In this document: piece after piece, positions 10,501 through 64,000 of the stretch
How the letters are laid out: each line of letters begins with the position of its first letter
Numbering within the stretch: position 1 is the stretch's first letter
Source: an uncultured virus (IMG/VR IMGVR_UViG_3300031612_000006)
Taxonomy: Duplodnaviria; Heunggongvirae; Uroviricota; Caudoviricetes; Crassvirales
DNA: 64,000 nt
Strand: one strand, 5' to 3'
IMG/VR virus record: IMGVR_UViG_3300031612_000006
Notes under the pieces: model-generated
Databases searched by the model: none
Seen by the model: only the letters and a program-made list of their open reading frames with translations
What the model was told of the DNA's origin: nothing
Program-made: the position numbers and the translations under genes

Positions 10501-10501
10501 T

Positions 10502-11021: not shown

Positions 11022-11106
11022 CACAAACATTATTCGTATCAGCAGTAGCTGTATTCGTTGTCGTGTTTATTCTATACGACATGTCCGTTAACAAAACAAA
11101 AGGAAG

Positions 11107-11295: not shown

Positions 11296-11465
11296 TTGTT
11301 CTAAAAAGAAAAGAGATGAAGACAGGTCTGATAAAAAGTGTACTAGTAAAGTATGCGGAAAGAAATGTAAAGTCAATTCAAAGACTGATAAGGATGAAGC
11401 ACAAGATAAAGATAAGTCTTAGTGCCTTAAAGGTTAGAATTTCTAGAGTTAAAGAATGAATACTT

Positions 11466-11485
11466 AGAGGGGTTCACCCCCCTTT
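11466..11485 (+). terminator. Terminator candidate at the end of the early block
   Basis: AGAGGGG-TTCA-CCCCCC-TTT hairpin. Confidence 0.5.
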
Positions 11486-11557
11486 AAACCTCCTTTAACT
11501 CATGCACAGTAGTGATTTTTATTAGCTACCTTAGTAGTCTAATAATCATCCCTGCTA

Positions 11558-25692: not shown

Positions 25693-28600
25693 CTACCTTA
25701 GAGACCTTTTAGTCCCACTCTTGTTTTGAAGAGCGCCCCTCATAGGACTAGGTAATAGCTGAGCCAAGTTGGATACAAAGTTCTTATCTCCCTTATCTCC
25801 GTACTTACTCTTACGTTTGTACTCACTACCAACTCCTACTTTATATACTGCTTGACCTAGGTTCTTGAACGTATTAACTGCAGGAATGTTAGTCATGTAT
25901 GTAAGCTTAGGGATGTTAACTACTAATAACATATCTCCTAATAACTTCTCCATGAATTTAGCTGCTGGGTCTTCTTCTTCGTCATCAGAAGCCATACCAG
26001 CCATACCTAATAACATAGCAACTATAACTATACCATGAGTACCTCTCCATAAGCGCATAACAGCTTCCTTTTTGTGTTCGCCGTGCTCTTCACCGTAAGC
26101 TTCAAGTTCTTTTTTGAATGCTACTATATTCCACATCTTACCTTCTTCCTTCATTTTAGCAAGGAAGTCAGCTGCTGCAGGGAAAGAACCCATTCTCATT
26201 GTACCTAAATCATCAATATCTTCTTTACCGAATCTATCTCTTATGAATGTAGGGAACCATCTCTTAAATTGCATAGTCATGTTTGATAAAGCATAAAGCT
26301 GAATCATACGAGCGTCAGTCTCAGAATACCCACGACCTTGCACATTAACTACATCTCTTTCTAATTTAGCTAAATCAGATTGAGAGATAGGTTTAGCTCC
26401 GTCTTTAAGTACTAAATCACCTTCAGGACTCACTTCATAAGCATTCCATTGCTCTTCAGTTAGGTTACCTAAGAATGCTGCTTGTTGAATCCAGTTTTCA
26501 GCTAAAACCATAGGAGCAAATATTAAAGAACTTAAAGAACTACCTCCTGTACCTTCAGCAATTTCTTCTGCACGATAAGTTAGTATCCCAAATTCCTCAA
26601 TCATCTTACGAGCCTTAACTCTTATAGTGTCATCGTAAACTTTCTTGTCACTTAAGCCCCAGTATCTACCCTCACCTTTCAGTAATTTAGCTCCACCCAT
26701 TTGTCTGTAAGCATTGTACTTACCGATAGCGACGTTACCTATTGCTGCTGGAACGTTCAAACCTAAGGCTACATACATTGTCCAGTTAACAAAGAAGTTC
26801 GCTACATCAGCCTCTGATTCAAAATCACTAAAGGTTAATCCACGCTCTTTACTTATCAATCCTCTCTTAACAACTTTCTGTAAGTAGTTGATTGCTCTCT
26901 TATTCTTTCCAGCTCCAAGATTAGCGTGAGGGTCAAAATACTTGCCACCACCTAATTGAGCTATAGCAGCATCAACCTCTTGCTTCTTATCTTCGAATCC
27001 TGTAAACATTAACTCCTGAGCTTTAACTTCTGAAGCTTCAACATCTACAACTTTAAATTCTCTATCTTCTTTAGACCAGTGAAGGTGCTTGTAAACAGAA
27101 CCATCAAAGTAAGAGTTACCGTGTTGGAACATGAATAACGACACATAGTTTCTTAGAGCTTTATGTAAGTTTTCTGTAGCTAAGTAAGCTGAAGTAATAG
27201 AACGTTTATGATTAAATCTGTTCTTAGACTCTTCCGACTCTAAAGACATTAAATCATTAACCCTAGAACCTATACTAACATCTCTACCTAAAGCATCTTC
27301 ACCGCTAGCTAAATACTCTTTAGCTTTAGATTTGATTCTTTCAAGACCAACTATTCTTTCCATAGAAGTCTTTTGAATCTTAGCCTTACCATCTGTCCTT
27401 GTAATTACAGATGTACCATCTTCCAATATTTTAATAGTCTTAACGTCAGCACTACTCTCACTCATGTATATAGATTTCCAACTGAAGTAATCTAATGTCT
27501 CAGACTCTCCTGTAATAGGGTTGATGTCTGTAATCATTACATCAGAAATATCCTGGTCTCCCCTAAACATCTGGAAGTACATACCAAACAATCCTCTTTT
27601 CTGTAGAACTTCCCATCTAGAAGATGTAACAGAAGGAACGTAACTAGAACCTCTATCTTGAGCGTACAACTCTTTAGTTTGTATTAATCCTTTATAGAAT
27701 GAAGTGTATGTAACATACATCTCTAAATACTCTTTCTCTGCTTTATGTAAGCTAGTGTAGGCATCACCTTTTCTGTTTAGGTTTCCTGCTTCCGCACCTT
27801 TACCGAAGAATAATCCAGACTTAAGACTTATGTTTGAGCCATCTCTATAGCTAACCTCTCCGTTCTCGTCTACTATTTCTTTAAGTTCAACATCAACATC
27901 TATAAGGTTTTCAAATAACTTACCAGTGATGCTCTCAGAACCTAAGCCCATGTACTTCATCCACAGCTTCTTAGTCATACCCTCAACTCCATCACCAAAC
28001 TTCAACTCAAATAAGTTATTCAACTTAGAGTTCATTTCCTTAGTGATAAGGTTTACGTTTCTAGTGTATTTCATGTGAGTCATTTTCATGCTCTTATTGA
28101 TATACGCTATAGCAGGCTTACCTCTACCAAAGTCACCAGGTGAAAGCCACATAGATAAGTCAGAAATATCCTTACTCATTAAGTCTCCTTTGATAATCTC
28201 ATCCTTAAATGATTTACCTTGAGTAAACTCCCAGTCAGCTATCTGCTTGTTGGCTATGTTATTACCGAAGTGGTATTCTAAATATCTCCTAAGAGGATTC
28301 GCAGCCAACTCATCTAGCTTGAATGATTTAGATTTCTTAATCTTACCCTCAAACAATCCTAATTGAGCTGCTTCAGGTAAGTGGAAATCACCCATAGTTA
28401 ATTTGTCCATGTAGCTATTGTACATTTCTCTAACCTTATTGAATTTTTCGTCAAGTAATTCTTTCTCTCTTTCTTGGTATTCCTTTCCTTTAGATTTAAA
28501 CTCGTACTTAGCTTTCTCTAGGTTAAGTTTTTCCATCTTTTCAAATAGATTCTTAACCTCTGCAACAGAAGCTTTATACACTTCGAACTGATACTGTAAA

Positions 28601-31600
28601 GATTCTTTCTGCTCGTCAGTAAGAGCCTCGTAATCTATATCAGAAGGGAGTTTAGCTTTAACGAAGTCTTCTTGAGACATCTCCTCTCCTATATTGTACT
28701 GCTTATGCGTTCCTTCGAATTCGTATAAAGGAACCTTGTGGAATTTTGTAGTTGATATATGGTTAGGCTTTCTTTGAGAGTTAGTAGGAGAAGCGTTTTG
28801 AATTAAACCTTCCTTCTTAACTTTTCCTTTATACATTAAAGGACCGAATAAACTAATCATAGCAGCCTCAGGCATAGAGCTAAAGAACTGTATAGGGCTC
28901 TTAGTCATCGCTTCGTTCATTCCGAAGTGGTTATCACCTACAATAGAAACCTGATTAGCATCATTAGACCCAACATTCTTAGTTTCTATCTTAAATGCAC
29001 CCTTCTCGTCTAAAGACTCATCTTTACCGAACAAAGCCATGTATGAAAGAATAGCAACTCTTCTTGAGTTAATCTTCTTCTTCTCAACCTTCTCACCTCT
29101 ACGTTGAGCAACGAAGTTAGTGTTGTTAACCACAAACTTATTCATGTCGTTAGTGAACTCACTTACATTAACATCCTCTAATGATTTGAATGTTTCGTTT
29201 ATCTTTCCAGAAACCTCAGCACTAAAGAAGTTCAATAAAGAACCAGGCTTAGTACCCCATCCAGTGGAAACGAAATCATTTGCTACCATAAACTTCTGAA
29301 TGACAGAAGGTAGTTTAGAGAAGTCTTTCTGTATGATTCTAATCTGAGCTGTGAAATCTACCTCACCTCTAAGCTTATCTGCATTTAACTTAAACTTAAC
29401 CATAGGAACCCTTCTAGTATTCTCTTTAATGAAGGTGTCATTATTATCAAACTCTGGAGTTAATACAAACGCATTATGGTGAGTAGCTTCAACGTACTCT
29501 AAGAATTTATTATCGTTGTTATTGTTTTTATATTCAGATAAGAATTGACCGACAGCAACAGTCACAAGACCGTACTTCTCTTCTCTAGATAATTCTTTCC
29601 ACATCTCTCTAGTATACTTATCAGATAAACTGTGAGTACCTAAATCTGCTGTGTATATATTAACTAGTAAATCTGCGGCTACATCTACGTCAGAATGAAT
29701 AGCAGCTCTAACTAAATTTAAAGCCTTAACCATTCTTTCGTTAGCTTCTTCGTCTGTAGATAACTTATTCTTAGAGGTTCCTTTAAAGATACCTTTAACT
29801 GAAGTTCTAGACTTACCCTTTTTATCTTTATAGCTATTAACATCAGCAGCAAGTATACCATTAGAGGATTGTAATCCTTCATCAGTAAACCCACCAACTA
29901 AAGCTGTACCATAACCACCTGAGTAATAAGGGTCGTTCTCAAATCCTTCCTGTATAAGGGAGAAGTCAAGAGCTTTATTTCTTTTAAATAATTGATTGTT
30001 TTCACCAACCAAGTCAGCCATACCTTCGCCATCATCATTACTCTGATTGTCTAACGCTTTATTGGCAGCATGATGCTTAGTTAATGCTATGATAGGATTA
30101 GATGAGTGATGCTTATCTAAACCAACAAAGTGACTCATACTAAGTATGTCTCCATTGATTGTTTCCAATACATGATAAAGAGCTAGCGAAGTAACTCTAT
30201 CCATGTTATCTAAATCAAACGAAGGATAAATTGTATTTATCATTTCGCCTAAGTTTCCACGCTTAGCTATCTTAGAGTCCTCTCCTATAATTTCTTTAAG
30301 AGACTCCTTGAGTTCTTTATTTAAAGCTCCTCTGTTTTCCTCTGTCTTAGAGTAAACGAATTCAGAAGCCTCAGCCCATTTAGCACTCTTAAGGAATTGA
30401 GATATTTTAGCAGGAGGGAACCCCATCTTAATAAGTAATACGAATGTAGCGCCTGTATTGGCTACGAACTGAAACTTACTTCTGTTATTGTTCTTACCGT
30501 CATCTAGTATCAAGTTAAGCCAGTTAGCTAACTCATACCAAGTACCACCACCATCTTCTGATATGTTGTTGTTAATAGAAGATTCAGTCTGACCTTGTAT
30601 GGTAAGCTTTATTCTACGACCATTGAACATTAAGTCTGGGTTACCTTCAGCTAAGTAACTAAAGACTAGGTTCTGAGCAGCTATCAAGCCAATCATCTTC
30701 CCGTTTCCTTTAGTCTGACCAAACATCCTGTGAGCTCCTAACATAGACATATCGTTAGGTATATCGGAACTACCAGTCTTGTTGTTGTATAAAGCCATGT
30801 TAGTTTCCTCAGACACTGTACCGAACTCAAGCTCCTTAGTTAATGAGTTTTGAACTTCAGGCATTAAGAATAAGTCCATAATAGACTCAGTCAATTTGTT
30901 CTTAAGAACATCACCCTTACTCAACTCCTCACCTTCCTTAGCAACCTTAATGGTATTTAAGTGCAACATATCTCCATCTAAATCAGAGCCTATAATTGCA
31001 GACACTAAAGGATTGACAGCTATAGTGTTACCTGGTTTCGTTGATATTCCAGCTACACGAAGAACTATAGTAGAACCACTCGATGAAGCTGGAATTCTTG
31101 TAGCTAAGAACTTAATCTCATTACCAGACTTTATAGCCGCATCCACATCCTCTTGAGTTATTCCTAACTCATTAGCCATGTGTTGAGATATTAAAGCTTG
31201 AGCTGGAATAACGAAGTATTCAGTCTTCTCTGCATTCTTTCCTTTACGGTCTTTGTACTTAACCTTACGACTAGATACAGTCATAGGCTCTAAAGAATCT
31301 TTAGTCTGAACAATCTTGTTAGCAGAACCAACTTCATATCCAACAACTACATCTGACTCTTGAAGAGAAAGCGTACCTCCTGTTCTTATCTTATAAGCTA
31401 TACTCTGAATTTTAGAACTCAGTAGTTTAAGCATAGACACACGAAGAGAAGGAGTAGACATCTTACCGTCTTCTATTGCAGCTTGAACCTCTAATGGTGT
31501 TGAATCAGATTCAGAACTAGCCTTTATAATATCCTCTCTACTTAAATCCTTTAACTCGGAATTGTACTGGTGAGTTAATGCTTTAGTGAAGTTACTAATA

Positions 31601-34600
31601 ACCTTATCAGAGGCAGCGGAAACAGAAGGGTTGTTGTGACCTTTGAATACATTTATGTTAGCAATCATTTGCTTAGCAGCGGTAGCTGTCTTAGCACTCT
31701 TATCTAACTCTCCTTGTATACCAAAGAACCTACCGTCGTAACCATAAATATCATTCTCTTTATCGTAAGAATAAGAATTCATAGTACTGTTCATTTGAGC
31801 TGGAGTCATAGCTTTCAATTCAGCTATACTGAATTTATTTCTAGGAGTTCCTTCTACACCTTTCACTGCACCTTTCTTTACACCAGAGTGAGCGTAAGCA
31901 ATCACTGCGTGACCTCTTAACTTCTTCTTAGCATAATACTTCTCTCTAGCTTTTAATGCTCTGTAAATCTCCTTTAAAGGTCCTGTAACTTTATTGTTAA
32001 GAACTATCGTATGTCCTTTAGCGTAGAATGTATTAGATTCCTGACCATAGAAGCTTGATATTTTCTTGTTATCTACGTTCTTCCCGTAACCAACTAACTT
32101 ATAAGAACCCTTAACATCTACTATATCACCATGCTTAGCTGTTAATTTATCAGCCTCTTCTTGTGTTATGTATGACGCTGAATCCATAAGGTCAGCCTTA
32201 AGAGTTATCTCTCTAGTCTTAGGTACAACCTTAGTCGTTCCATCAGCTTGTTCTTCGCTAACATAATCTAATACCTGTATCTTGTGAGGCATATCGTTAG
32301 AACTTAACCCTTCGTCTTCAAATATTAATAACTCAACACGCTCTCCTGCGTAAGAAGAATCATGGTTAGCAATAAGACCTGTAGCTCTTTTGTTCTTCAT
32401 AGTAAAGTCAGCCTCTTCCATTATAGAAGAAGTGATGTCCTGTAAGTAGAACTTGTTTATGAAGTAATTTAAAGAAGCAAGCTCACCGACTTTAACGTCT
32501 AGCTCAGCACTTAAATCATCAGCCATTTCTCTGTGTCCGTCAAGAGTAGATAAGTCATAAGTAACTCCATCAATACTCAATTCAAACGCCTTCTTGCCTA
32601 GCAGGTTTAGCTCCCCTTTGCCCTCTCTAACGCTACCTTCATTAAGGGTAATCGCTATTGGGTGGGTGAGTCTAAGCTCAGCTATGACAGAAGGACTAGT
32701 AGTTAAGTGCATATCAAACACATCCTCAGGATTGTTGTGTCTGTCTATAATGTCTTTAGTTTTATTCTCGTGATACTGAACCAACTCCTTAAGCTTTTTA
32801 GCCGCTTCTCTTTTGCTCGTAATAGTCTGAGCTTGAGAGTAATACCTTCTAGTCTTGTCAGAGTAATCTCTAACTGGCTGTAGGTAGTATTTAGACTTAA
32901 CCTTAATAGCTCTATTAATCTCAGAAATATCACCCTTACTAACCGTTAGGTTATCTAAGTTAGCTCTATCTAATTGTTGATTAGCATCACCATCTATAGA
33001 GATATACTCTAACTCGTAAGTACCATTAGCTATCATTGCAGCGTAAGGGTTAGTTACTAAGTTTTTCTTTTCCCCGAAAGAGAATAAAGACAAGAAAGCC
33101 ATATCGTTAGCTTTCATGTAATCGTTAAGTGACTCTTTATTGTAAACCAAGAAGTACTTTCTGATGTTCTTATTGAGCATCTCTCCTTCTGGTGTTCTTA
33201 TGTTAGAGTTGTGCGAGTCGTCATCGCTAGCTAATTTAGCTTCAAGTAATCTCTTTGCGTGAGGCACAACTCCCTGAACGTCTTTGAATGAAGATGATAT
33301 ATCACCCTCTTTCATCTCGAACATAGTAATAGATTTCTTCTCCTTGTAAGAGAATTCACCCATATCTTTAGCTATGAACTGACCTTCTTTAATTTGTTTA
33401 ACTCTTACATGCTGAACGTTTCCGTTGTCATTAATAAAGAAGTCTCTAGTGTTTGAATCACCATCTTCTTCGTCAACGAAACCGTCAGTAAATTTAGCCT
33501 CATAAACAAGTGTATCCAAGTTCTCTATAGAGAATCCTAAGAACTCATCTTTAGATAACTTTAAGTGGCTAGACTTCACCATGTGTGGTACATACATGGA
33601 ATCAAGATTAGGTTTAGAGAACGATGCTTGGAATCTAGAAACAAACTCAGCTTCAAGTTCAACAAGTTTAGCGTCAGAGATATTAACGAACTCATCGTTA
33701 GCATCTTTATTCCACTTCTTAAATACAGGGATAAACACATTCTTTACAGCGTCCTTAGTCCAAGTCTCCATAGAGTTAGTACTATCGCTACTAGAGGCTG
33801 CTATTGATATAGAACCCCAGAACATCTCTTTAATCCTATCTCTACTAAAGTATGCTCTAGCAGATATTCTATTACCGTCCTCGTCGCTTAAGACTAATGA
33901 ATCAAGTTCAGCTACGGTTATATCTAATCCTTCTGGAAGTAAGTAGTTGTTTATCAAATTAACCACATGACCACCTGTAAGAGCATCATCTGTATATGAT
34001 AAGTGAAGCATAGCCCTAGACAGGTTAAGTCTTCTTTTGTACTCCTCGTTTACGGCTAAATCAGAATCAGAAACATCTCTACCTCTTATCTTCTTTTCCT
34101 GTACAGCTCTCATGTAACCAAGCCATTCTCCTTGAGTTCTTTCAGCTTTAGTAGTTTCCTCTTCAGTATATCCAACCTTAACTAAGGCTGCTCTTATCTT
34201 TCTTTTAAGACCACTAGTCATAACTGGAGCAAATCCATCACCAGAGATAAGGATACCTTTCTCTGTAGTCATAGAATTAAATTGTAATAGTATGTTTTGG
34301 TAGATATTACCACCAGACATATCAATCTCAGAAGCCATGAATATAAAGAAGTTACCCATAAGCATCTCCTTTTGTTGTGCTACAGTCCCGTTAGGCTTCT
34401 TCTGTCTAGCCTTAGCCATAGCTTTCTCTGCAGCTAATCTAAACATAGGCTCACTTCTATTAGCAGCCGCTAATTCCCGTATAGACTTCATTATGTTCTC
34501 CTTATTAATCAAGGATATATCATAAGAGCCATCACCTATGTACTTATCAGACTTCATGAAGGTTCTAAGAATAACATAGAACTTATCAGCCATAGCCATG

Positions 34601-37600
34601 TGCTTGTCTTGTATCTGATTAGCTAACCCATCTTCTTGAGTGTCAGCCTCTTGCTCTTCCTTAGAATTAAGCATCTCCTGAACTTGCTCAAGAGTAGCTC
34701 CATCATTAACCTTCTTGCTTACAGCACCAAGGAACATTTGCTCAACAAAGTTAGTGATAGCCTTATCGTTATTAAACATAACGTTGTAGACTTCATTATA
34801 TTCTTTAGTTCCTTTTACATAGTGAGCTAATATGTATTTAGCTAAGTCAACTTTAGATTTGTTGAATATCTTATTCATATGAAGCTCAGCTCTAAGCTCG
34901 TTCATAATAGTATCAACAGAACCATCTGCTGCTTTCTCGCTTAGTAAGTGAGGCATATCCTCATTAACGAACGTTCTAGCATCACTAATTATCTCTGGAG
35001 CTTGTTCTGAAACCATCTTATTGATGGTATCCATAATAGCTTCATCCCTATTCTCGTTCACCTTTCTAAGTGAAGGAGATGCTTTAGAGATTCCACCATA
35101 CTCAGCTTCATGTTTAGCCATAAGGGTTTTAACCTGAGCTAAAGATGCTTCTAAATCAAACTCATCAGTCTTCTTGTAGTCACCTTTAGAGGCAACCTCT
35201 AGAGACCATTCAGCCTCTTCCTTTGTAAACGCTTTAGATATTTTTTGCTTCCATGATTTAAGAGAGTTGTTATACTCCTCTCTTTTGGTCTCATCAGATA
35301 TAAACATATCCTTATTCTCAGCCCCATAGATACCCGCTAACTGCGTTAAAGCTTCATCTTGAATGATTGTCTGGCTATCAGAACTAAGCTCCTTAAATTG
35401 AGCCTTATCTAATAGGTCAGATGCGTACTTACTAAACTCTTGAGAGAGTTCTAGTGTAACCTTTTGGTTTACCGAGAACGCATAATCCTCAACGTTTGTC
35501 TCTATCTTCTCTTCAGACTGTAAGTTTAAAGACTTTAAAGCCTCTTCTTGTCTAACTATCCTAATCTCTCCTTTAGCTGAGGTAGGTACAGAGTATAATA
35601 AATTCTCTTGGTACTGTAGTTTAACCTTATTGTATATAGGTTGGTCTACTATTCTACTCATCATCTCCTGAACTTCAGGCAGATGACTATAAAGCTCTCT
35701 GAATATGTGGAAGTTCTCATGGAAGAACGTCTCATCAGTGGCGCTATTATCAAGGAATATACTTAGACCTGCAGCGTAACCGAAGTAGTTGATACCTTTT
35801 TTAGATAAATCAACTATAGAGTTTACAGAAACAAGACCATCTACAGCCTTTGATGATAAAAGGTCAACGAAAGCTCTTTCAGAACCAGAACCAACAACAA
35901 GGGCTCTACGTAATCTTCTTCTAATTAAAGCGTCCTCAACAAAGTCTATAACCTTAGCTATATGACCCTTATCGAAAACCTTATCAGCAACAACCTTAGC
36001 TGCGCTTTTAGCTAGTATAGCTGAAGCTCTAGCATTCTTCATGAATCTAATAGAGAACTGCTCTCCCTCTGGGGATGATTCACTTCTCATTAATTCAATT
36101 AGTTTTGCTTTGTCAGCTTTCTTGAATTTATGCAATCCCTTAATACCTAGAACTCTAGCTTTCTTTTTAAGCTTATTAAGACTCATCTTGTCGTAACCAT
36201 CATCAACGACAACAGGCTCTTCTTTAACCTCTTCTACTACTACTTCTTCTTCAGATTCCTCTTTAACTTCTTCTTCTTTAACTTCAGATGAAGCTTCCTC
36301 TTCAGCTTTAAGTTTAGCTTCTGCTTCTAACTGAATCTCAGCTTCTTTTGCTGCAGACTCAACAACCTTAGTTGCAACCTCTCCAGTGCTAGAGATATTA
36401 ATGTATTCAATCTTACCGTTCTCTAATGTTTTAGAGAAGTCAGTAGAGCCATCCTTGTTAGGGGTTTGTTGCTTATATCCTTTAGCTTTATCTTCACCTA
36501 CGTGTTCTGTAAATTTAATAAACACCTGAGACTTAGCGTAACCATCTTTCTGGTCTTTATAGTAGGATTCATTCTCACCAACTAAATCAGACTCCTCTTT
36601 AGTTAAAGATTCTCCATTATATTCTTTCTGTACTATTTTACTCAACGCTGGAGCAGTCTTCTGACTGAATTTATCTTTAGCAACCCTAGCATCAGCTACA
36701 GAGTAAACATCCCTAACAGCTTGAGCACTAGCGTCTACTATCTTCTTTTCTTCGTTTAAAGATTGATTCATAGCAACCTTTAATCCAGCTATCTCTTTAT
36801 CTCCCCATTCTTTAGTTTGAGCTTTAGAATCAACTAAGGTTTGAATCTCTTCAACCCTAGTCTCCATCTCTCCTCTTTTCTGAGCAAGACTCTTAGATGC
36901 TACGTTATTAAACCAAGCATGAGATACTAACGCAGACTTCTCTTTGTTGTTTAATTTATTAACTGGGTATTTAGCTACACTTTCATTAACCTCGCTTAAC
37001 GTTTGCTCATACATGGTTAACTGCTCTTGAGTAATGCTACCATTATCAAACTTAGCTTGGAAGAACTCCATAATCATCTCTGAGTCACCATGAGATACAG
37101 CATTCATTAAGATAGTTCTAGCAGCAGTATCCTTAGCCAACATATTAATTTGGCTAGTATTCATCTCTACTATATTATCCTTCTCTACCCAAACCATGTC
37201 ACCTTTAGAATCCTTCTCTTGTACTCTAGTCTTCTTATTTACAGCATATACGCCAGCCTCTATATCTTGATTGAATATATCTATCAACTGATGAGTCTCA
37301 GCCTTACTATCTAAAGACTGAGCTAATAAAGCTCGATTCTCTGTGGCAGTAGAAATCATATTACTAGCTCCAGACATAAGTAAACTAGTTGCAAACGAAA
37401 GAACCCTTGTCGGTACTTGTTCGTCAGCAGTAAAGAATTCTAAGTAAGAAGGGAATTCCTCTCCTTTAGCTTCAGCTATTCTTCTCTGTACAGTCCAATC
37501 TTGGAATACCTCTTGGAATTGTTCTACAACACCATCAGTAACACCGTTGGCTGCACCCATCCCTATAGATTTAAATGCAGTTCTAATAACTGACTCTATC

Positions 37601-38676
37601 TTAGGATTCTTAAGTAATTTAAGTGAAGCTTGAGCAGCAGTCGTACCAGCAACTTTACCTGCAGCAGCTCCAGCAACTTTACCTGCTCCAGTTTTAGAGA
37701 CTGCCGTAGCAGCACCTTTAGCTGTCTTCATTAAAGAAGCACCAACCTTAAGCTGTCCAGCAAATAATCCGTACTGAATAATATCAGCACCCATTGAAGC
37801 TAAGTTATCAGCAAACACTTGTCTACCTACGTGCTTAGCGTCTTTAATATCAACACCTTGTAGTATAGCTTCATTCATTGCTTGACCTGCAATAGCAGCT
37901 CCTTCAATCATGTTAGCCGTAGAACCAGCAGCTACAGTTGAAATACCCGTATGTATTAACTTAGAAGCGTTGTAAGCATTAGCTACATTACTAGACATAC
38001 CAACAGAACGACCACCAGCTGCAATAGCTTTAGCGGCTGTAGTAAACATCTTTCCTTTAGTAAGCATACTAGCACCTTTAGCAGCAGCAGAACCTGGAAT
38101 CATTAATGATAATGCAAAAGGTAGCATTCTAGCTACCCCTGTTTCCCAGAATGCAACGTCAGACAAATCATCCCACGTAATATCCTGTAAGTCTGTAAGA
38201 CCAGGGACGTCATCTCCGTAAGAATGTAGGTAATCTGCGAAATCATGGAATGTATCTGAAATAGGTTTATTAGTTTCAACACCAAATACTTGTCTAGAAA
38301 TCTCATTAGAAGGAGTCCCTCCTAAGAAATCAGCTATGTCACCAAAGCTATCTACCATATCTCCAACACCAACCATTAAAGACTTTCCAATCTTTTCTAT
38401 ATGACCCATGTCGTAATCAATACCAGGCATTCCAGCTTCAGGTATCTCAGGGAGTTGTTGTTGTTGTTGTTCTTGTTGATTCATAGAATCAGCAGTATGA
38501 CCCCACATGTCTGATTGCTCAGATTCTTGTGCTGCGGGGGCAGGTGCAGGTTCTCCAGGAATAGACATTCCAGACTGAACTTCAGCACCTTGGAAATCAT
38601 CATTCAAAGAGCTATCGTATTGGCTTGCGCCTTCTTGAGGTGTACCTACACCTGGGTTCCAAGTATTGTTTTCCAT
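25693..38676 (-). CDS. Giant virion-packaged two-barrel RNA polymerase polyprotein with zincin-like protease domain (crAss-like)
   Basis: 4327 aa; ATRIP...GSDLDGD catalytic motif (30970-30984); HENFH zincin motif (35707-35721); position after the ejection proteins, as in crAss-like phages. Confidence 0.85.
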   Translation of the reverse strand: MENNTWNPGVGTPQEGASQYDSSLNDDFQGAEVQSGMSIPGEPAPAPAAQESEQSDMWGHTADSMNQQEQQQQQLPEIPEAGMPGIDYDMGHIEKIGKSLMVGVGDMVDSFGDIADFLGGTPSNEISRQVFGVETNKPISDTFHDFADYLHSYGDDVPGLTDLQDITWDDLSDVAFWETGVARMLPFALSLMIPGSAAAKGASMLTKGKMFTTAAKAIAAGGRSVGMSSNVANAYNASKLIHTGISTVAAGSTANMIEGAAIAGQAMNEAILQGVDIKDAKHVGRQVFADNLASMGADIIQYGLFAGQLKVGASLMKTAKGAATAVSKTGAGKVAGAAAGKVAGTTAAQASLKLLKNPKIESVIRTAFKSIGMGAANGVTDGVVEQFQEVFQDWTVQRRIAEAKGEEFPSYLEFFTADEQVPTRVLSFATSLLMSGASNMISTATENRALLAQSLDSKAETHQLIDIFNQDIEAGVYAVNKKTRVQEKDSKGDMVWVEKDNIVEMNTSQINMLAKDTAARTILMNAVSHGDSEMIMEFFQAKFDNGSITQEQLTMYEQTLSEVNESVAKYPVNKLNNKEKSALVSHAWFNNVASKSLAQKRGEMETRVEEIQTLVDSKAQTKEWGDKEIAGLKVAMNQSLNEEKKIVDASAQAVRDVYSVADARVAKDKFSQKTAPALSKIVQKEYNGESLTKEESDLVGENESYYKDQKDGYAKSQVFIKFTEHVGEDKAKGYKQQTPNKDGSTDFSKTLENGKIEYINISSTGEVATKVVESAAKEAEIQLEAEAKLKAEEEASSEVKEEEVKEESEEEVVVEEVKEEPVVVDDGYDKMSLNKLKKKARVLGIKGLHKFKKADKAKLIELMRSESSPEGEQFSIRFMKNARASAILAKSAAKVVADKVFDKGHIAKVIDFVEDALIRRRLRRALVVGSGSERAFVDLLSSKAVDGLVSVNSIVDLSKKGINYFGYAAGLSIFLDNSATDETFFHENFHIFRELYSHLPEVQEMMSRIVDQPIYNKVKLQYQENLLYSVPTSAKGEIRIVRQEEALKSLNLQSEEKIETNVEDYAFSVNQKVTLELSQEFSKYASDLLDKAQFKELSSDSQTIIQDEALTQLAGIYGAENKDMFISDETKREEYNNSLKSWKQKISKAFTKEEAEWSLEVASKGDYKKTDEFDLEASLAQVKTLMAKHEAEYGGISKASPSLRKVNENRDEAIMDTINKMVSEQAPEIISDARTFVNEDMPHLLSEKAADGSVDTIMNELRAELHMNKIFNKSKVDLAKYILAHYVKGTKEYNEVYNVMFNNDKAITNFVEQMFLGAVSKKVNDGATLEQVQEMLNSKEEQEADTQEDGLANQIQDKHMAMADKFYVILRTFMKSDKYIGDGSYDISLINKENIMKSIRELAAANRSEPMFRLAAEKAMAKARQKKPNGTVAQQKEMLMGNFFIFMASEIDMSGGNIYQNILLQFNSMTTEKGILISGDGFAPVMTSGLKRKIRAALVKVGYTEEETTKAERTQGEWLGYMRAVQEKKIRGRDVSDSDLAVNEEYKRRLNLSRAMLHLSYTDDALTGGHVVNLINNYLLPEGLDITVAELDSLVLSDEDGNRISARAYFSRDRIKEMFWGSISIAASSSDSTNSMETWTKDAVKNVFIPVFKKWNKDANDEFVNISDAKLVELEAEFVSRFQASFSKPNLDSMYVPHMVKSSHLKLSKDEFLGFSIENLDTLVYEAKFTDGFVDEEDGDSNTRDFFINDNGNVQHVRVKQIKEGQFIAKDMGEFSYKEKKSITMFEMKEGDISSSFKDVQGVVPHAKRLLEAKLASDDDSHNSNIRTPEGEMLNKNIRKYFLVYNKESLNDYMKANDMAFLSLFSFGEKKNLVTNPYAAMIANGTYELEYISIDGDANQQLDRANLDNLTVSKGDISEINRAIKVKSKYYLQPVRDYSDKTRRYYSQAQTITSKREAAKKLKELVQYHENKTKDIIDRHNNPEDVFDMHLTTSPSVIAELRLTHPIAITLNEGSVREGKGELNLLGKKAFELSIDGVTYDLSTLDGHREMADDLSAELDVKVGELASLNYFINKFYLQDITSSIMEEADFTMKNKRATGLIANHDSSYAGERVELLIFEDEGLSSNDMPHKIQVLDYVSEEQADGTTKVVPKTREITLKADLMDSASYITQEEADKLTAKHGDIVDVKGSYKLVGYGKNVDNKKISSFYGQESNTFYAKGHTIVLNNKVTGPLKEIYRALKAREKYYAKKKLRGHAVIAYAHSGVKKGAVKGVEGTPRNKFSIAELKAMTPAQMNSTMNSYSYDKENDIYGYDGRFFGIQGELDKSAKTATAAKQMIANINVFKGHNNPSVSAASDKVISNFTKALTHQYNSELKDLSREDIIKASSESDSTPLEVQAAIEDGKMSTPSLRVSMLKLLSSKIQSIAYKIRTGGTLSLQESDVVVGYEVGSANKIVQTKDSLEPMTVSSRKVKYKDRKGKNAEKTEYFVIPAQALISQHMANELGITQEDVDAAIKSGNEIKFLATRIPASSSGSTIVLRVAGISTKPGNTIAVNPLVSAIIGSDLDGDMLHLNTIKVAKEGEELSKGDVLKNKLTESIMDLFLMPEVQNSLTKELEFGTVSEETNMALYNNKTGSSDIPNDMSMLGAHRMFGQTKGNGKMIGLIAAQNLVFSYLAEGNPDLMFNGRRIKLTIQGQTESSINNNISEDGGGTWYELANWLNLILDDGKNNNRSKFQFVANTGATFVLLIKMGFPPAKISQFLKSAKWAEASEFVYSKTEENRGALNKELKESLKEIIGEDSKIAKRGNLGEMINTIYPSFDLDNMDRVTSLALYHVLETINGDILSMSHFVGLDKHHSSNPIIALTKHHAANKALDNQSNDDGEGMADLVGENNQLFKRNKALDFSLIQEGFENDPYYSGGYGTALVGGFTDEGLQSSNGILAADVNSYKDKKGKSRTSVKGIFKGTSKNKLSTDEEANERMVKALNLVRAAIHSDVDVAADLLVNIYTADLGTHSLSDKYTREMWKELSREEKYGLVTVAVGQFLSEYKNNNNDNKFLEYVEATHHNAFVLTPEFDNNDTFIKENTRRVPMVKFKLNADKLRGEVDFTAQIRIIQKDFSKLPSVIQKFMVANDFVSTGWGTKPGSLLNFFSAEVSGKINETFKSLEDVNVSEFTNDMNKFVVNNTNFVAQRRGEKVEKKKINSRRVAILSYMALFGKDESLDEKGAFKIETKNVGSNDANQVSIVGDNHFGMNEAMTKSPIQFFSSMPEAAMISLFGPLMYKGKVKKEGLIQNASPTNSQRKPNHISTTKFHKVPLYEFEGTHKQYNIGEEMSQEDFVKAKLPSDIDYEALTDEQKESLQYQFEVYKASVAEVKNLFEKMEKLNLEKAKYEFKSKGKEYQEREKELLDEKFNKVREMYNSYMDKLTMGDFHLPEAAQLGLFEGKIKKSKSFKLDELAANPLRRYLEYHFGNNIANKQIADWEFTQGKSFKDEIIKGDLMSKDISDLSMWLSPGDFGRGKPAIAYINKSMKMTHMKYTRNVNLITKEMNSKLNNLFELKFGDGVEGMTKKLWMKYMGLGSESITGKLFENLIDVDVELKEIVDENGEVSYRDGSNISLKSGLFFGKGAEAGNLNRKGDAYTSLHKAEKEYLEMYVTYTSFYKGLIQTKELYAQDRGSSYVPSVTSSRWEVLQKRGLFGMYFQMFRGDQDISDVMITDINPITGESETLDYFSWKSIYMSESSADVKTIKILEDGTSVITRTDGKAKIQKTSMERIVGLERIKSKAKEYLASGEDALGRDVSIGSRVNDLMSLESEESKNRFNHKRSITSAYLATENLHKALRNYVSLFMFQHGNSYFDGSVYKHLHWSKEDREFKVVDVEASEVKAQELMFTGFEDKKQEVDAAIAQLGGGKYFDPHANLGAGKNKRAINYLQKVVKRGLISKERGLTFSDFESEADVANFFVNWTMYVALGLNVPAAIGNVAIGKYNAYRQMGGAKLLKGEGRYWGLSDKKVYDDTIRVKARKMIEEFGILTYRAEEIAEGTGGSSLSSLIFAPMVLAENWIQQAAFLGNLTEEQWNAYEVSPEGDLVLKDGAKPISQSDLAKLERDVVNVQGRGYSETDARMIQLYALSNMTMQFKRWFPTFIRDRFGKEDIDDLGTMRMGSFPAAADFLAKMKEEGKMWNIVAFKKELEAYGEEHGEHKKEAVMRLWRGTHGIVIVAMLLGMAGMASDDEEEDPAAKFMEKLLGDMLLVVNIPKLTYMTNIPAVNTFKNLGQAVYKVGVGSEYKRKSKYGDKGDKNFVSNLAQLLPSPMRGALQNKSGTKRSLR

Positions 38677-57616: not shown

Positions 57617-59416
57617 TTAAGATTTATATGGTACTAATCGTCCGTTTTCTCTTTTATAATATACAAAGCCTAAGCTTTTCTTTTCTACTGTCTCTGTTTT
57701 CACTTGTTTGTCGTGAAGGTCTATATCATGTATAAGGCACAATCCAAAAGCAATCGCCCTATCCGTGTTCCTTAAACCGTAACCTGCTAGTTCGTCTAGT
57801 AAGTCAATAAACCATATGTTGTCGCATTCCTCTTCGATGTACTGTTCCATGAATTGCTCCATCACAGCCTTAGTATGTTTATTCATTTGAATACCATACT
57901 TATTCTTATTGACCGTCTTCGGAGAGTGGGCGGTAGCTGGACGCTCTTTCAAGTATCCTTTACCCCCTGCTCTTTGGAAATAACCTATGACTCCAATACG
58001 AGTATACTCTATCAACATTTTGGCGTTGTAATATACAGCTAATTTTAGACATCCATCCCAGAACTCTTCTGCCGTGTCTGGACGCTCTGTATATTCAGCC
58101 ACAGGGTATCTGCTGGCGATGTCCATGTTAAAGAATCGTCTGAATATAATAGCACTACCTAAAGAATCCGTCGATGCTTGGTCTTGGTCATAACTATCAA
58201 TACCTCCAATATCCAACCCTTTAAGGTCGGTCTTAGGGTGAGATAGAATCTTGTAAGGACCATATTGGTCTAATACAAATTCAACCTCCATTGAGTCACC
58301 AACCCATTCGAGTCGTCCTTTTTGTATTTGATTTCTAAGAGCATCATCGCTAAGTATCGCACTCCTCTGAGCGTTTATTTTAGATACATTAAACCTTGAG
58401 TTCTTAGTTTGTAAGAAGGCTTCTTCGACGGATAGCGGATAATTCTGAAGCTCTAGATTGTAACCCTTCTGGTTACCTGCGGCATACAGTTGCTCCCTTC
58501 TTTCCTTTAAAGCGGCTGTAGCACCATCTACATCAGATACTCCCGTATCTTTGTCAAAGAAGCCATGATAACACATAGAAGCTGGAATAAATAGAGGAAT
58601 AAGATTAAACGCCTCAGCATTATAATACATCTCCATAAAATCCTTAGACGCAGCTTCAATATCTCCACCCGTTCCACCAATAATAGGTACACCATATTGG
58701 TCATCCCCATCCATGAAACAAGCTTTAGAAGACATATAAGCATTAAGGAGTTCCTTGAACTCACCAGCTTCTTCAAATACCATCACAGCAAGACGTTCAC
58801 CCTTATAAACTTCAGGGTTACTCATCGTTCGGCAGTGTATTACTGAATGAAATCCTCCAGTTCCCCACTTACCATCTTTAGCTTTTATTTTATACCCAGA
58901 CTTTAGAACATCATCACCCTCTTTTAATATTGAGTGCCTGAAGTTACTACTCTGATTGTTTAATCCTGACTTAACCTTATCAAAGAAAGAGGTCGCTGTA
59001 ACCTGTAAACCCGCAGCCACACCAACGTGGTTGTACGGATAAAAGGTGTACTCATGGGCTAGTATCCCTGAGTTCATATAACTAAAGCCTTTATCACGAG
59101 CTTTAATTACAATCATTCCTTTACCTTCTTTCTTGCATCTATCGAACAAATCAAAATAGATTTTATCCATGTCTCTATACCAGGGTGCGATAAGAGTCTT
59201 CCTTGAATTCCCTTTCTCTCCTGTAGAACCTAATATTTTATAATAGTTAAGATAGTAATAGTGCTTACCAGTAATAGCGTCTAAACCCTTAGGTTTAAAG
59301 CCTTCCTTACATCTTCTAATCTCTTCGTCCCAGAACTCTTTAAACGCAATACTATCGGGGCTAACATCAGGCGCACCTATATGTACGATTGGAGCGTACT
59401 TTTCTATCTTAGACAT
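57617..59416 (-). CDS. terL: Terminase large subunit
   Basis: ITG.HY.YLNY, KARDKGFSY Walker A, FEEAGEF Walker B, GGTGG, GIDSYD and DRAIAFG nuclease motifs. Confidence 0.9.
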   Translation of the reverse strand: MSKIEKYAPIVHIGAPDVSPDSIAFKEFWDEEIRRCKEGFKPKGLDAITGKHYYYLNYYKILGSTGEKGNSRKTLIAPWYRDMDKIYFDLFDRCKKEGKGMIVIKARDKGFSYMNSGILAHEYTFYPYNHVGVAAGLQVTATSFFDKVKSGLNNQSSNFRHSILKEGDDVLKSGYKIKAKDGKWGTGGFHSVIHCRTMSNPEVYKGERLAVMVFEEAGEFKELLNAYMSSKACFMDGDDQYGVPIIGGTGGDIEAASKDFMEMYYNAEAFNLIPLFIPASMCYHGFFDKDTGVSDVDGATAALKERREQLYAAGNQKGYNLELQNYPLSVEEAFLQTKNSRFNVSKINAQRSAILSDDALRNQIQKGRLEWVGDSMEVEFVLDQYGPYKILSHPKTDLKGLDIGGIDSYDQDQASTDSLGSAIIFRRFFNMDIASRYPVAEYTERPDTAEEFWDGCLKLAVYYNAKMLIEYTRIGVIGYFQRAGGKGYLKERPATAHSPKTVNKNKYGIQMNKHTKAVMEQFMEQYIEEECDNIWFIDLLDELAGYGLRNTDRAIAFGLCLIHDIDLHDKQVKTETVEKKSLGFVYYKRENGRLVPYKS

Positions 59417-60851: not shown

Positions 60852-61310
60852 TTAGTCGTGTTGAATGAATCCACCTTTAGAGTATCCTAAGGCACTTTTA
60901 GCTTTCTCGAACATAGAAGGAGGGGTTTTATTAACAGAACCACTACCAGCACTACCGCTTCTTACGGGGTCTTGAGTTCTATTAACTACCTTATCCATTA
61001 TAGCCTTACTAGACGCAGATGTAGTGGGCTTACCCTTCTTAATCCTACGCTTAACTGTATTGCTTGCTCTTTGAGATGGAGTGGTCTTAGTAACCTTATT
61101 AAGTACTTTATTTTTAACAGACTTAACCTTGTCTTTAATCTTCTTTTTTATGCTACCACCATCCTTAAATGAACTTCTAGTTACTGGAGTTCTCTTTGAT
61201 GGTTCTTCAACTGGACCTCTTCTGCTATTTATTATAGCTAGCTTTTGTGCTTCAGTATACTTAGGAACCGCTTTAGGCTTACGTTTTAACTTTCTTGTGT
61301 CTTTAGGCAT
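60852..61310 (-). CDS. Basic protein ending YSKGGFIQHD; first gene of the late strand
   Basis: 152 aa, K/R/S/T-rich; preceded by a TATCTTTG box. Confidence 0.65.
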   Translation of the reverse strand: MPKDTRKLKRKPKAVPKYTEAQKLAIINSRRGPVEEPSKRTPVTRSSFKDGGSIKKKIKDKVKSVKNKVLNKVTKTTPSQRASNTVKRRIKKGKPTTSASSKAIMDKVVNRTQDPVRSGSAGSGSVNKTPPSMFEKAKSALGYSKGGFIQHD

Positions 61311-61338
61311 AATACTCTTAGTTTTAAATTAATAAAAC

Positions 61339-61346
61339 CAAAGATA
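61339..61346 (-). promoter_or_regulatory. Bacteroidota-type -7 promoter box (TATCTTTG)
   Basis: TAnnTTTG match ~30 nt upstream of the ATG at 61310. Confidence 0.6.
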
Positions 61347-62317
61347 ACCTAAAATAATATTATTTATTTTCATAAAAAATTATATAGGTATGTTTTTACG
61401 GATGTCTTACCCTAACTACCCCGTACCTCATAGAAAACTTTGATGCCCCCCTCAATATTTCTAAAGGAACTGAACAAGTTCAGGTATTAAAGCTCTTATA
61501 TTCCCCATTTACTCCTATATTATACCTAATAGGAACTAACTTACGTCGAGTTTAATAGAAATGTGGGTGTAAGGGTGTGGAGGTGTTCCACTACATAGGT
61601 AACAACCTTATTAATCCACTATGTGCTCATAAAGAAGAGCAAGGAAGGTTGCGTAATAGATGTGAGTAAGCTTGTAACCTCTTACTCTCACTAGGATAAC
61701 AGCCATACTAATTAGGTTTAAGGGTTATGCTTAACGCCTTCGGCTTATCCTCTTATCTCTTAGGTATTAATCATCTGTTTCATTTAGATGTTTAGTATCA
61801 CTCGGTAGGGTCTTATCCACTATCCCACCAAAGGTACAATAAATAAATAACAATGTCAAGTCTTAGCTATGCTAATTCTCTCGATGTTCTTATTCATTTA
61901 GATGTTGAGTGGTGTTGGAGTGGATATGCCTTCGGCTTGTCCTCTTTGTTCTTTGCTTTATTCATTAAAGTATATTTCGCGTCTATACAAAGCGTTTGCT
62001 TAACAGCAAACAAAGGTTGAGGGCGTGAAAAGACACGCGTAAATTCGGGTGTGAGTGGGAGTGAAAGCCCACACATTATTATGCTTAAACTAATCCATTC
62101 TCTTTGGTAAGCTCTGTTGCAACAGAGAGCAGATATATCGTCTAAAGATATAGTAAGAGTTTTCGATTAGCTATTAGTAGGCCACACGATGTAAGTCCTA
62201 CTAATATTAAGCTTCACTATCACTTATAGTACAACACTTCGTGTTGACTTATATTACCATATATGCCTTCGGCTTCTCCTCTCCTTTATTTGCTATTATT
62301 AATTAAACCCTTTAATT

Positions 62318-62506
62318 ATGAAAAATACTACCGTTGAGATAGTACTAAGTAATCTTAGTCTAAAAGAACTTCGTTCTTTACACGCTAAATTAATGATTGA
62401 AAAGGATACTTCTATTGATAAAATAGAGTTGAAAGAGCTTATTATGCTCGTAGACCAATATATGTTCGATGCTTATATCGAAACCGTTGAACTACACCAA
62501 GGATAA
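62318..62506 (+). CDS. Hypothetical early protein
   Basis: 62-aa ORF downstream of repeat copy 3, followed by an AGCAACAG/CTGTTGCT hairpin. Confidence 0.55.
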   Translation: MKNTTVEIVLSNLSLKELRSLHAKLMIEKDTSIDKIELKELIMLVDQYMFDAYIETVELHQG

Positions 62507-62809
62507 TTAAAAGCAACAGGTAACTCTGTTGCTCTTAATTTTCACCATCATTACCGTGTACTACGTACACCAAGGCTCTCAGTCCTTGCTAACAACTCTG
62601 AGTAGAGGCTTGATGTCCTTGATTTATCAATCCATCACCCAGAGCTCCTAAACAAGAGCAACCATAAAAACTGTTTAGACCTACACATAATGTCGTTAAA
62701 CTTGTTGTAATTAAACGCTTGTAGTAGTAACCTTAGGCAGTATAGCCGACGCGTCTACTACAAGTGTTTCTTTTATTACTAACATTCATTAACTAAATAC
62801 CTTAAGCGT

Positions 62810-63085
62810 ATGAACAATCTTAAATCAGTCGAGACTAAAAGTCTCTCGTTATTGTCTAGCATTGCTAACGACAATAGAATGGCGTACCCTGTTGCTGTAA
62901 AAGTAACAGAATTAGGTGGAGAAAATAGAGTGGAGATAGTCCACGCCCACAACAAAAAGGAAATGCTAGATGTTATAGATGAAATAGCTCAAGCTATCCT
63001 AGAATCTGAATACGAATTAGATTTGAAAATCAGTCGCATCAACCGTTTATCGGCTAACAAATACGCAAGTATTTACTTAAATTAA
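62810..63085 (+). CDS. Hypothetical early protein
   Basis: 91-aa ORF. Confidence 0.6.
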   Translation: MNNLKSVETKSLSLLSSIANDNRMAYPVAVKVTELGGENRVEIVHAHNKKEMLDVIDEIAQAILESEYELDLKISRINRLSANKYASIYLN

Positions 63086-63399
63086 GCTTATGATTAATCT
63101 AATCGGAATGCTCGTGCTTATGTGTGCCTCAATAGGCATTATAGGAATCTTCACTGCTATCAGTGAGTGGAGAAGAGAAAGATTAAAAGTTAGAACTCCC
63201 TTAACGGGAACAATAGAAGAGTGTGAAAACCTAACTAGAGACCGAGAGTGCACCTAGTGTGTGCCTTCGGCTATCTCCTCTCTTCTCTTTGCTTAGAGAT
63301 AATCTCTTTGCGTTTTAATCTTCACTATCATTGCTACAGACAGCATAGTGAATATACTCCTTAAATCCTTAGGAGCGAAAAAAAGGAACCCCTTGCCTT

Positions 63400-64000
63400 A
63401 TGTTAGATTTCACTCTACCTACAGGACTTGCATTAGCTACACAAAAATCAGAACTTCGTTTAAGCTCTGCACACGCTAGTATTGATGCAAAAATTACTTC
63501 ATTCACCGATGGAGTAGCCCAAAAGCGAGTTGATGGCGTCTTCAAAGACTTCACTCAAGCACGCTTAACGCTTGTATTCGGCTCTTTAGAATCGGATAAT
63601 AATACTTATCGCTTTAATCTGCGTTTTCCAAACAAAACGATTAAAGACATTGCAACGGAGATTTACCTCTTCGACAATGTGCGTGCAAACCCGCCTAAGG
63701 CTTCTACCGTTCTCGGTAAGAAAATCCTTGAGATGACGGATAAGGACGGCGTGATTCTTTACAGCTCAATAAACGAGTTCGTGGAGAAATTCAAATTATC
63801 AGGTAGTACTTCTAAGCTATACTCAGCTTTGCGTGAGAACAAAATCTCTTGGGATTTATCAAAGTTTGCTGAATCTATCACAGATACAACACTCTCAGTT
63901 CAGACTTACTACAACGATAAAATGAAGGACTACACGATTTGCACAGTGGACTACAATCCCCGCAAATCTGCGTCCCAAACAACAAAGACTACAACCCGTG
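63400..64000 (+). CDS. Hypothetical early protein, truncated by the window edge (MLDFTLPTGLALATQK...)
   Basis: Open frame from ATG 63400 to the window end, read manually; downstream of repeat copy 4. Confidence 0.6.
   Translation, partial: MLDFTLPTGLALATQKSELRLSSAHASIDAKITSFTDGVAQKRVDGVFKDFTQARLTLVFGSLESDNNTYRFNLRFPNKTIKDIATEIYLFDNVRANPPKASTVLGKKILEMTDKDGVILYSSINEFVEKFKLSGSTSKLYSALRENKISWDLSKFAESITDTTLSVQTYYNDKMKDYTICTVDYNPRKSASQTTKTTTR

Follow-up and report, generated by a model that had tools for sequence, protein, structure and literature searches.

Which signal marks the start of rightward early transcription in a crAss-like phage that encodes a giant RNA polymerase of its own? The question is raised by a stretch of 64,000 nucleotides from an uncultured virus of the Crassvirales (IMG/VR record IMGVR_UViG_3300031612_000006), which was analysed at its full length and is referred to here as the window. 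Its leftward and rightward genes part at a 1-kb gap between the start codon of the last leftward gene (61310) and the first rightward open reading frame (ORF; 62318), and within and beyond this gap a short unit built on the 9-mer GCCTTCGGC, here termed motif A, is repeated. Judged from sequence and position, motif A is probably a phage-specific start signal, predicted to serve rightward early transcription; that it carries a mini-hairpin on the template strand and is read by an injected phage polymerase is the explanation we prefer, tentatively and at somewhat short of an even chance.

Exact copies of the 9-mer stand at 61736, 61928, 62265 and 63263 of the 64-kb window, each on the + strand; these four compare with a mean of 0.11 expected by chance (none of 100 dinucleotide shuffles reaches four). 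The copies span at most 1.6 kb at the start of the + strand gene block, and the remaining 61 kb of the window hold zero further copies. Each unit comprises the 9-mer, a T, a spacer of 2-3 nt and TCCTCT, then a run of pyrimidines that is followed by TTTGC in copies 2-4 and by TTAGG in copy 1. The distance from the 9-mer to TCCTCT is 3 nt in copies 1-3 and 4 nt in copy 4; the 18-base string GCCTTCGGCTNNNCCTCT is exact in copies 1-3 and has a 1-nt insertion in copy 4, and the upstream flanks of the four copies differ from each other. The original prediction, made from the letters of the window and a list of its ORFs, had described four co-oriented copies of GCC-TTC-GGC-T followed by TCCTCT and a pyrimidine run, with GCC-GAA-GGC as the core on the minus (template) strand, and both parts of the description hold for all four copies. 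It had also placed the copies ahead of the first + strand genes, which is correct for copies 1-3 and incorrect for copy 4, located between the third and fourth ORFs. Every copy lies where a transcription unit would be expected to begin. The copies and the ORFs around them are as follows:

61736..61765, + strand: motif A copy 1 (GCC-TTC-GGC, T, TA, TCCTCT, C/T run, TTAGG), left of the conserved leftward promoter block, with a syntenic copy in relatives

61928..61957, + strand: motif A copy 2 (hairpin, TCCTCT, TTTGC), starting a 260-nt gene-free, strongly folded stretch

62265..62294, + strand: motif A copy 3, 18 nt past a terminator-like hairpin and 53 nt upstream of the ATG at 62318

63263..63293, + strand: motif A copy 4, with the 1-nt longer spacer, 6 nt past the stop at 63257 and 137 nt upstream of the ATG at 63400

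62318..62506, + strand: first rightward ORF, 62 aa, no family match

63090..63257, + strand: third rightward ORF, with its stop at 63257

63400..63999, + strand: fourth rightward ORF, more than 200 aa, continuing past the window; its homologs in relatives lie immediately right of the conserved block

Sigma-A promoters of Bacteroidota carry TTG near -33 and TAnnTTTG near -7. The latter box is absent from the four copies of motif A, where TTTATTTG and TCTCTTTG come nearest to it, and from the upstream regions of the rightward ORFs (none of four); four leftward genes (starts at 25632, 55326, 60219 and 61310) have it no more than 60 nt upstream, and it also occurs at a leftward promoter (61859). 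Promoters of this TAnnTTTG type make a marine member of the Bacteroidota the likely host. This agrees with the earlier claim that motif A does not match the host box used on the late strand, and a reading of motif A as a host promoter was rejected for want of TAnnTTTG.

The candidate reader of motif A is encoded on the late strand:

25693..38676, minus strand: ORF of 4327 aa, homolog of gp66, the catalytic RNA polymerase of phage phi14:2, with GSDLDGDMLH at residue 2565

In BLASTP, aa 2378-2596 of this ORF aligned with aa 1183-1396 of gp66 (E = 6e-7), followed by a second collinear segment; GSDLDGDMLH stands opposite GSDFDIDKMY of gp66, with DLDGD facing the catalytic DFDID, and a literal DFDxD is absent from the ORF. 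The ORF is about twice the size of gp66 and gave no Pfam, PHROG or PDB sequence match. Because the alignment spans the catalytic loop and a collinear second segment, the ORF is classed as a homolog of two-barrel RNA polymerases of the gp66 type, as originally proposed, with its gp66-like core around aa 1800-3000 and a putative role in the virion; no T7-type polymerase family was detected when 45 ORFs were searched against Pfam. To our knowledge, a gp66-type RNA polymerase is carried by all crAss-like phages. Among crAss-like phages, early transcripts have been mapped in phi14:2 only, and there gp66 is packaged in the virion. According to the preprint, gp66 transcribes single-stranded DNA, which is its preferred template in vitro (bioRxiv 10.1101/2020.03.07.982082).

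In the preferred explanation, the 9-mer would form a C-GAA-G DNA mini-hairpin on the minus (template) strand, the enzyme would be positioned by the purine-rich sequence that follows on the template (AGAGGA...), and the reader would be the injected gp66-type two-barrel RNA polymerase, not the host sigma-A enzyme. The transcription start at motif A, hairpin formation in vivo and the identity of the reading polymerase are all three what we infer.

The fold can be judged from a relative, L107 (terminase large subunit, TerL, 93% identical), the only close relative whose contig extends to the early region. This contig was aligned via the neighbouring conserved block, not via the motif, and two of its three sites were found so. 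L107 carries GGCTTCGCC at three of three sites (the places of copies 1 and 2, plus a third site), each followed by TTCTCT and a C/T run; in all three copies the second stem pair is changed from C-G to G-C with the loop and the closing C-G unchanged, and the stem of the third copy is 4 bp long. The spacing from hairpin to TCCTCT is fixed at 3-4 nt in all seven copies of the window and L107. Across nine aligned copies (window, four; L107, three; L126, two), 27 of 27 core cells pair, with GC in five and CG in four copies at the second pair, GC in eight and CG in one at the first, and CG in nine of nine at the closing pair, a count tempered by the choice of the two L126 rows via a hairpin scan. 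Covariation scores 0.403 in this alignment, whereas shuffles give 0.096 and none of 500 attains the observed value, and sliding the partner position gives none.

A second line of evidence is a strand-specific excess of hairpins in the early region (61311-64000), which holds eight C-TNC-G triloop hairpins with stems of at least 3 bp on the + strand against 0.51 expected (0 of 200 shuffles), and no hairpins of the mirror form against 0.44 expected. Other triloop stems in this region are at chance (52 versus 50), as are both the C-TNC-G and the mirror forms in the late region and in bases 1-12025. The template-strand loops of all eight are C-GNA-G. Four of them are the copies of motif A; the other four are as follows:

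62232..62246, + strand: CAACAC-TTC-GTGTTG, 6-bp stem, C-TTC-G triloop and T-rich tail; kept in L107 and L126; terminator-like

62556..62570, + strand: GTGTAC-TAC-GTACAC, 6-bp stem, C-TAC-G triloop; 6 nt past motif B copy 2 (see below)

62363..62379, + strand: AAAGAAC-TTC-GTTCTTT, 7-bp stem, C-TTC-G triloop; within the ORF at 62318-62506

63452, + strand: C-TNC-G hairpin with a 3-bp stem; within an ORF

In the loci of 45 relatives, 43 such hairpins versus 15 mirror forms were counted in 154 kb of early sides and 52 versus 37 in 385 kb of late sides, with near-identical loci included. That the repeat is real and not a product of chance is confirmed, and two findings back the hairpin: the compensating change and the strand-specific hairpin rule. 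A wider proposal, that template C-GNA-G mini-hairpins are a working part of a promoter or start-stop punctuation code for the injected two-barrel polymerase in some crAss-like lineages, is possible and on present evidence unlikely.

Several observations weigh against a hairpin promoter. The stem of motif A is 3 bp long in four of four copies, and the flanks do not extend the pairing; with the DNA parameters of ViennaRNA the motif reaches about -1 to -2 kcal/mol (z-scores of -0.8 to -1.4), no better than shuffles, and we assume that a generic energy model without a special term for the GNA loop class would account for this weak predicted fold. The compensating stem change is close to one evolutionary event, because the copies within one genome changed together, and the same covariation would arise if a dimeric protein bound a palindromic site in duplex DNA. 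If the geometry were like that of phage N4, the start would fall within the pyrimidine run. No such hairpin was found in 14.6 kb of the early region of phi14:2 and no hairpin excess at the early end of crAss001, and the preprint on phi14:2, in its main text, reports no common motif upstream of early transcripts (bioRxiv 10.1101/2020.03.07.982082). The case is weakened by this lack of hairpins and by a rival signal, motif B (TCACTATCA), which is clade-wide, stands likewise after terminator-like hairpins and lies ahead of all three rightward ORF groups. Finally, the 9-mer is missing in 78 of 80 TerL-defined relatives, its two matches (L125, L151) being in other contexts. The original prediction had named relatives as the place to look for the motif and for compensatory changes; the two-sided change at three of three sites in L107 answers to this, but the near-general absence of the 9-mer does not.

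What the more distant relatives (at most 84% TerL identity) have instead is a repeated C/T box with TTAAnTAAC and no hairpin, which also counts against the preferred explanation. The box reads TCCTGYTATTTCTTCTC in L179 and AATCCTTCC in L113 (three copies each), and TGTTAGTTTTTCCTCT in L139 and L120; one copy always lies left of the conserved block and the rest lie 36-73 nt upstream of small rightward ORFs, a placement that speaks for a start signal. Since these relatives retain the box without the hairpin, the C/T box is the older part of motif A and the mini-hairpin a lineage-specific addition. Pattern scans of IMG/VR gave 105 stretches for the window form and at least 119 for the L107 form; the 80 listed for each hold a single match and no array, as chance would give. 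A metagenome scan with a lineage-specific block returned one contig (L305), which is of the L179 type and has no hairpin, and scans with two other lineage-specific anchors returned either only the contig of L107 itself or five loci, on unrelated contigs with the same flanks. C-TTC-G hairpins of 3-5 bp were noted in L126 (6904 and 9414, in the orientation of the window), L151 (12727), L132 (12373) and L109 (12877), with the stems CGC, ATGGC, ACGCC, CCGC and CCGAC; these precede either a C/T run or, at a distance of a few bases, TTCACTATCA.

The system with which motif A is best compared is that of phage N4, whose early promoters lie at the genome end that enters first. There, transcription starts about 11 nt from the loop centre, and the hairpins are extruded by supercoiling and stabilised by single-stranded DNA-binding protein (SSB). 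Two papers describe the N4 early promoters P1-P3 as read by the injected virion RNA polymerase gp50, with stems of 5-7 bp (PMC4496689), and as having GGA or GAA loops on 5-bp stems (PMC13037366). Motif A resembles them in its small number of copies, which are co-oriented and stand at the beginning of the early gene block, and its lack of a host promoter consensus; in a template hairpin with a three-base G-purine-A loop closed by C-G, found in four of four copies; in a template purine run between the hairpin and the presumed start; and in the company of a giant phage-encoded polymerase, which is the virion enzyme in N4 and a putative virion enzyme here. It differs in stem length (3 bp, as against 5-7 bp) and in its candidate reader, a two-barrel gp66 homolog, whereas the N4 enzyme is T7-like and single-subunit. 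Further, experiments on N4 have located the start sites and shown that gyrase and SSB are needed, whereas motif A is described from sequence, and close relatives of N4 retain the hairpin whereas the more distant relatives of the window retain only the box. Because stem length and polymerase type do not fit, motif A lies outside the N4 family and works like an N4 promoter, if at all, without belonging to it. Of the original idea of an N4-like hairpin promoter, the co-orientation, the loop and the stem-keeping change stand, but the 3-bp stem, the hairpin-free distant relatives and the rival motif B speak against it.

The hairpin itself falls into a described class. GNA loops closed by C-G form very stable DNA mini-hairpins, GCGAAGC melting at 76.5 C; CCGAAGG forms the mini-hairpin in RSF1010 ssiA, and hairpins of this kind are also used by the G4 origin (PMC13037366). 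On the minus strand the window has GCCGAAGGC and L107 has GGCGAAGCC; each contains a C-GAA-G core for which sheared G:A geometry is expected, and both have the GNA triloop, the C-G closing pair and at least one further G-C pair that define the GCGNAGC class. The known cases, in contrast, prime single-stranded replicons, whereas the hairpins here are co-oriented, belong to a double-stranded DNA phage and are joined to a directional C/T box. With phi14:2 the window shares a homologous polymerase and rightward early genes, and phi14:2 has highly transcribed, gene-free early stretches; it differs from the window in the missing common motif and in the missing hairpins given above.

A literature search found no defined promoter for the gp66-type polymerase family, the phi14:2 paper having been judged from its preprint, without supplements. 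If the wider proposal on template mini-hairpins is true, it would give the first such promoter, and should the hairpin prove important, folded single-stranded DNA would be a means of telling phage from host DNA at which two unrelated injected polymerases had arrived by convergence. A short signal with a covarying stem provides concrete oligonucleotide templates for testing promoter recognition by gp66-type enzymes.

Among the alternatives, the best placed is that motif B, TTCACTATCA and often then ATGCRCGGTA in relatives, is the virion polymerase promoter, and motif A is either a delayed-early or middle promoter used with another factor or a conserved 5' leader; we regard this as clearly unlikely, and as the competitor to be taken most seriously. 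Motif B, which could be a promoter or another polar signal, is found near motif A at three places:

62214..62222, + strand: motif B, exact; 10 nt before the hairpin at 62232

62542..62550, + strand: motif B copy 2, variant TCACCATCA with one mismatch; 9 nt past a terminator-like hairpin at 62512-62533

63322..63330, + strand: motif B copy 3, exact; past a hairpin with a T-rich tail at about 63296-63320, and 77 nt upstream of the ATG at 63400

The window has seven exact copies, every one of them on the + strand (0.78 would be expected by chance, and none of 100 shuffles gives as many), and each of the three rightward ORF groups has a copy ahead of it. Relatives, those at 62-70% terminase identity among them, have the motif extended to TTCACTATCA-yn-ATGCRCGGTA, where it usually lies a few bases past a terminator-like hairpin with a T run; over 81 relative loci, CAC[TC]ATCA has 132 matches on the + strand versus nine on the - strand, many of the CACCATCA matches being coding. 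Both motifs sit just past terminator-like hairpins in the window (62232-62246 before motif A copy 3, 62512-62533 before motif B copy 2), and the order of motif B, about 50-60 nt, motif A and ORF recurs in the window, L179 and L305. Three exact copies of motif B, however, lie inside replication genes in different reading frames (1042, 4100 and 6283; another copy is at 11762) and one is antisense to late genes (20149), a distribution that fits a middle-class or non-transcriptional signal; no motif B stands upstream of motif A copies 1 and 2 or of their folded gene-free unit, and motif A copy 4 precedes motif B, contrary to the recurring order. By analogy to N4, the few hairpin copies at the head of the gene block would fit an injected enzyme and the many dispersed copies of motif B a later class, which we likewise only infer.

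It is rather improbable that hairpin and box are separate modules, the template mini-hairpin being a stop or insulator at the DNA level and the C/T box alone the start, in a joint of the PeSL type. The C/T boxes without a hairpin in relatives would suit such a division, as would the C-TTC-G hairpins of 4-7 bp that precede motif B in L151, L132 and L109 or follow genes, and the hairpin at 62232, with its T-rich tail, which is followed 18 nt later by motif A copy 3. The transcription of single-stranded DNA by gp66, as described in the preprint (bioRxiv 10.1101/2020.03.07.982082), and the PeSL cassettes of T4-type phages, which join a promoter to a stem-loop (PMC2839356), point the same way. But the fixed spacing of 3-4 nt between hairpin and TCCTCT in seven of seven copies is what one recognised unit would have, upstream of copies 1 and 2 there is no rightward unit in need of a stop, and a 3-bp stem is a weak block under the standard energy model. 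The small early units, punctuated by a stem-loop beside a repeated start signal and with gene content around the joints that varies among relatives, recall PeSL; the PeSL promoters are, however, strong and sigma-70-like and their stem-loops are RNA terminators, whereas neither motif A nor motif B is of host type and the loops here follow a DNA-type rule. A PeSL-type cassette proper was rejected, with no host-type promoter in motif A or B and only the general layout of a stem-loop beside a repeat in common.

A third alternative takes motif A as a duplex site for a dimeric phage regulator that reads GCC/GGC, as an operator for the early units and the leftward promoter, and is improbable to a higher degree. 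A symmetric protein would likewise force matched changes in the half-sites, the copies within a genome change in concert, and copies 1 and 2 bracket the leftward promoter block with its flanking repeats:

61811..61862, minus strand: conserved non-coding block, in 12 relatives, with TTGACA-N17-TACCTTTG, a host-type leftward promoter, and with TTATCCAC

61774..61796, + strand: direct repeat C1, TTTCATTTAGATGTTTAGT, flanking the conserved block

61888..61910, + strand: direct repeat C2, flanking the conserved block

The first leftward gene begins about 500 nt downstream of the block, and TTGACA-N17-TACCTTTG is predicted to be an excellent promoter of its kind; in relatives the block contains the palindrome TTGACAnTGTCAA. 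The repeats C1 and C2 of the window recur (as TTATTTATTTAGAYGTTTA) around the block in each of the 12 relatives that were aligned, and could be regulator sites or AT-rich unwinding elements. Half-sites of 3 bp with a gap of 3 bp are very small for a dimer, however, and a regulator leaves unexplained the strict TTC centre, the closing C-G and the same-strand excess of unrelated C-TNC-G hairpins with stems of 6-7 bp; the asymmetric C/T box at a fixed distance points to a directional signal.

The same block keeps alive a reading that is very improbable, namely that the mini-hairpins serve as priming (single-strand initiation) sites or belong to a replication origin at the strand switch, because it contains TTATCCAC, which we take to resemble a DnaA box, and the phage encodes a protein with a DnaA C-terminal helix-turn-helix (HTH) domain. 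The AT-rich flanking repeats and the DnaB-type helicase and replication-initiation/primosomal protein of the phage would suit an origin, as would the presence on the minus strand of CCGAAGG, as in RSF1010 ssiA and similarly in the G4 origin (PMC13037366). Against it, the copies are co-oriented with the genes and spread on one strand over 1.5 kb of intergenic slots directly ahead of units, whereas origin signals would be compactly placed and typically on both strands, the C/T box and TTTGC at a fixed distance and the boxes 36-73 nt before ATGs fit expression signals better, and the GC skew changes sign beyond base 64000, away from motif A.

The least probable alternative is that motif A acts in RNA, as a small 5' or 3' stem-loop with a pyrimidine tract for stability, processing or translation control: it shares the sense strand with every rightward unit, with copy 3 predicted to fall in the leader of the ORF at 62318 and the pyrimidine tracts upstream of the AT-rich leaders of ORFs without a Shine-Dalgarno sequence, but in RNA a UUC triloop on a stem of 3 bp is marginal, the register of the stable C(UUCG)G tetraloop is absent in the window and destroyed in L107, the loop rule fits DNA GNA triloops on the opposite strand, and no copy passes a terminator scan. 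That scan (stem of at least five pairs plus a T run; 61200-64000) gave eight sites with none of the four copies among them, and the RNA terminator that had been named as a refuting alternative can be put aside. A UUCG tetraloop as such was rejected since the register does not fit, and a likeness of motifs B and C to T7/SP6 promoters was dropped, no such polymerase being among the 45 ORFs.

Two gene-free stretches beside these motifs, 61950-62212 and 62551-62809, fold far better than shuffles (z-scores of -3.16 and -3.44), and by analogy to the intergenic regions of phi14:2 they may be early small RNAs. The antisense of the first also folds well beyond shuffles (z-score of -3.70), so such an RNA may come from either strand. 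The first stretch shares CGCGTAAATTCGGG with L107, and neither had an Rfam match. A 108-nt sequence at 62667-62774 is matched, with 15 differences, by contigs of other organisms from four marine DNA runs, where these have deeper coverage than the phage; the element is conserved and common to more abundant relatives. Further to the left, a 55-nt non-coding sequence at 61388-61443 (GGATGTCTTACCCTAACTACCCCGTACC...) is about 90% identical in L107 and was not found in the other relatives; its 17-base core also matched unrelated IMG/VR contigs.

The minus strand of the window encodes the crassvirus muzzle protein, both tail ring proteins and the crassvirus capsid protein (Pfam), together with TerL (57617-59416) and a portal protein (PHROGs). 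Genes on the + strand at 1-12 kb encode the DnaB-type helicase, the DnaA C-terminal HTH protein, the replication-initiation/primosomal protein and an amidoligase. In L179, an amidoligase homolog is located about 4.5 kb right of the strand switch, and for this reason the window is probably a nearly complete genome of about 65-70 kb in total, as predicted from this synteny, with only a few kb suggested by relatives to lie beyond base 64000; if so, the + strand block probably runs from 61.7 kb over the window end to 12 kb. The terminase is less than 60% identical to any entry of the phage collection, the best rows (about 28%) being gut crassviruses, and the collection contains no close DNA relatives of the window; in IMG/VR, many relatives were found at 62-100% terminase identity. 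A scan with the early ORF at 63400-63999 as query confirmed no relative, a tRNA scan found none, and the sole Rfam match was a chance miRNA (E = 0.91).

The sequencing runs that contain the stretch are marine metagenomes, and no RNA run is among those listed; four marine DNA runs hold the same strain in small contigs, with zero variation at the motifs. An amidoligase (PF12224; 177-1559, + strand) and a gamma-glutamyl cyclotransferase-like protein (PF06094; 7907-8329, + strand) are encoded in the replication module, a pair that suggests peptide-tag or glutamyl chemistry. A late protein of 440 aa with collagen triple-helix repeats (17316-18638, minus strand) is probably a fibre.

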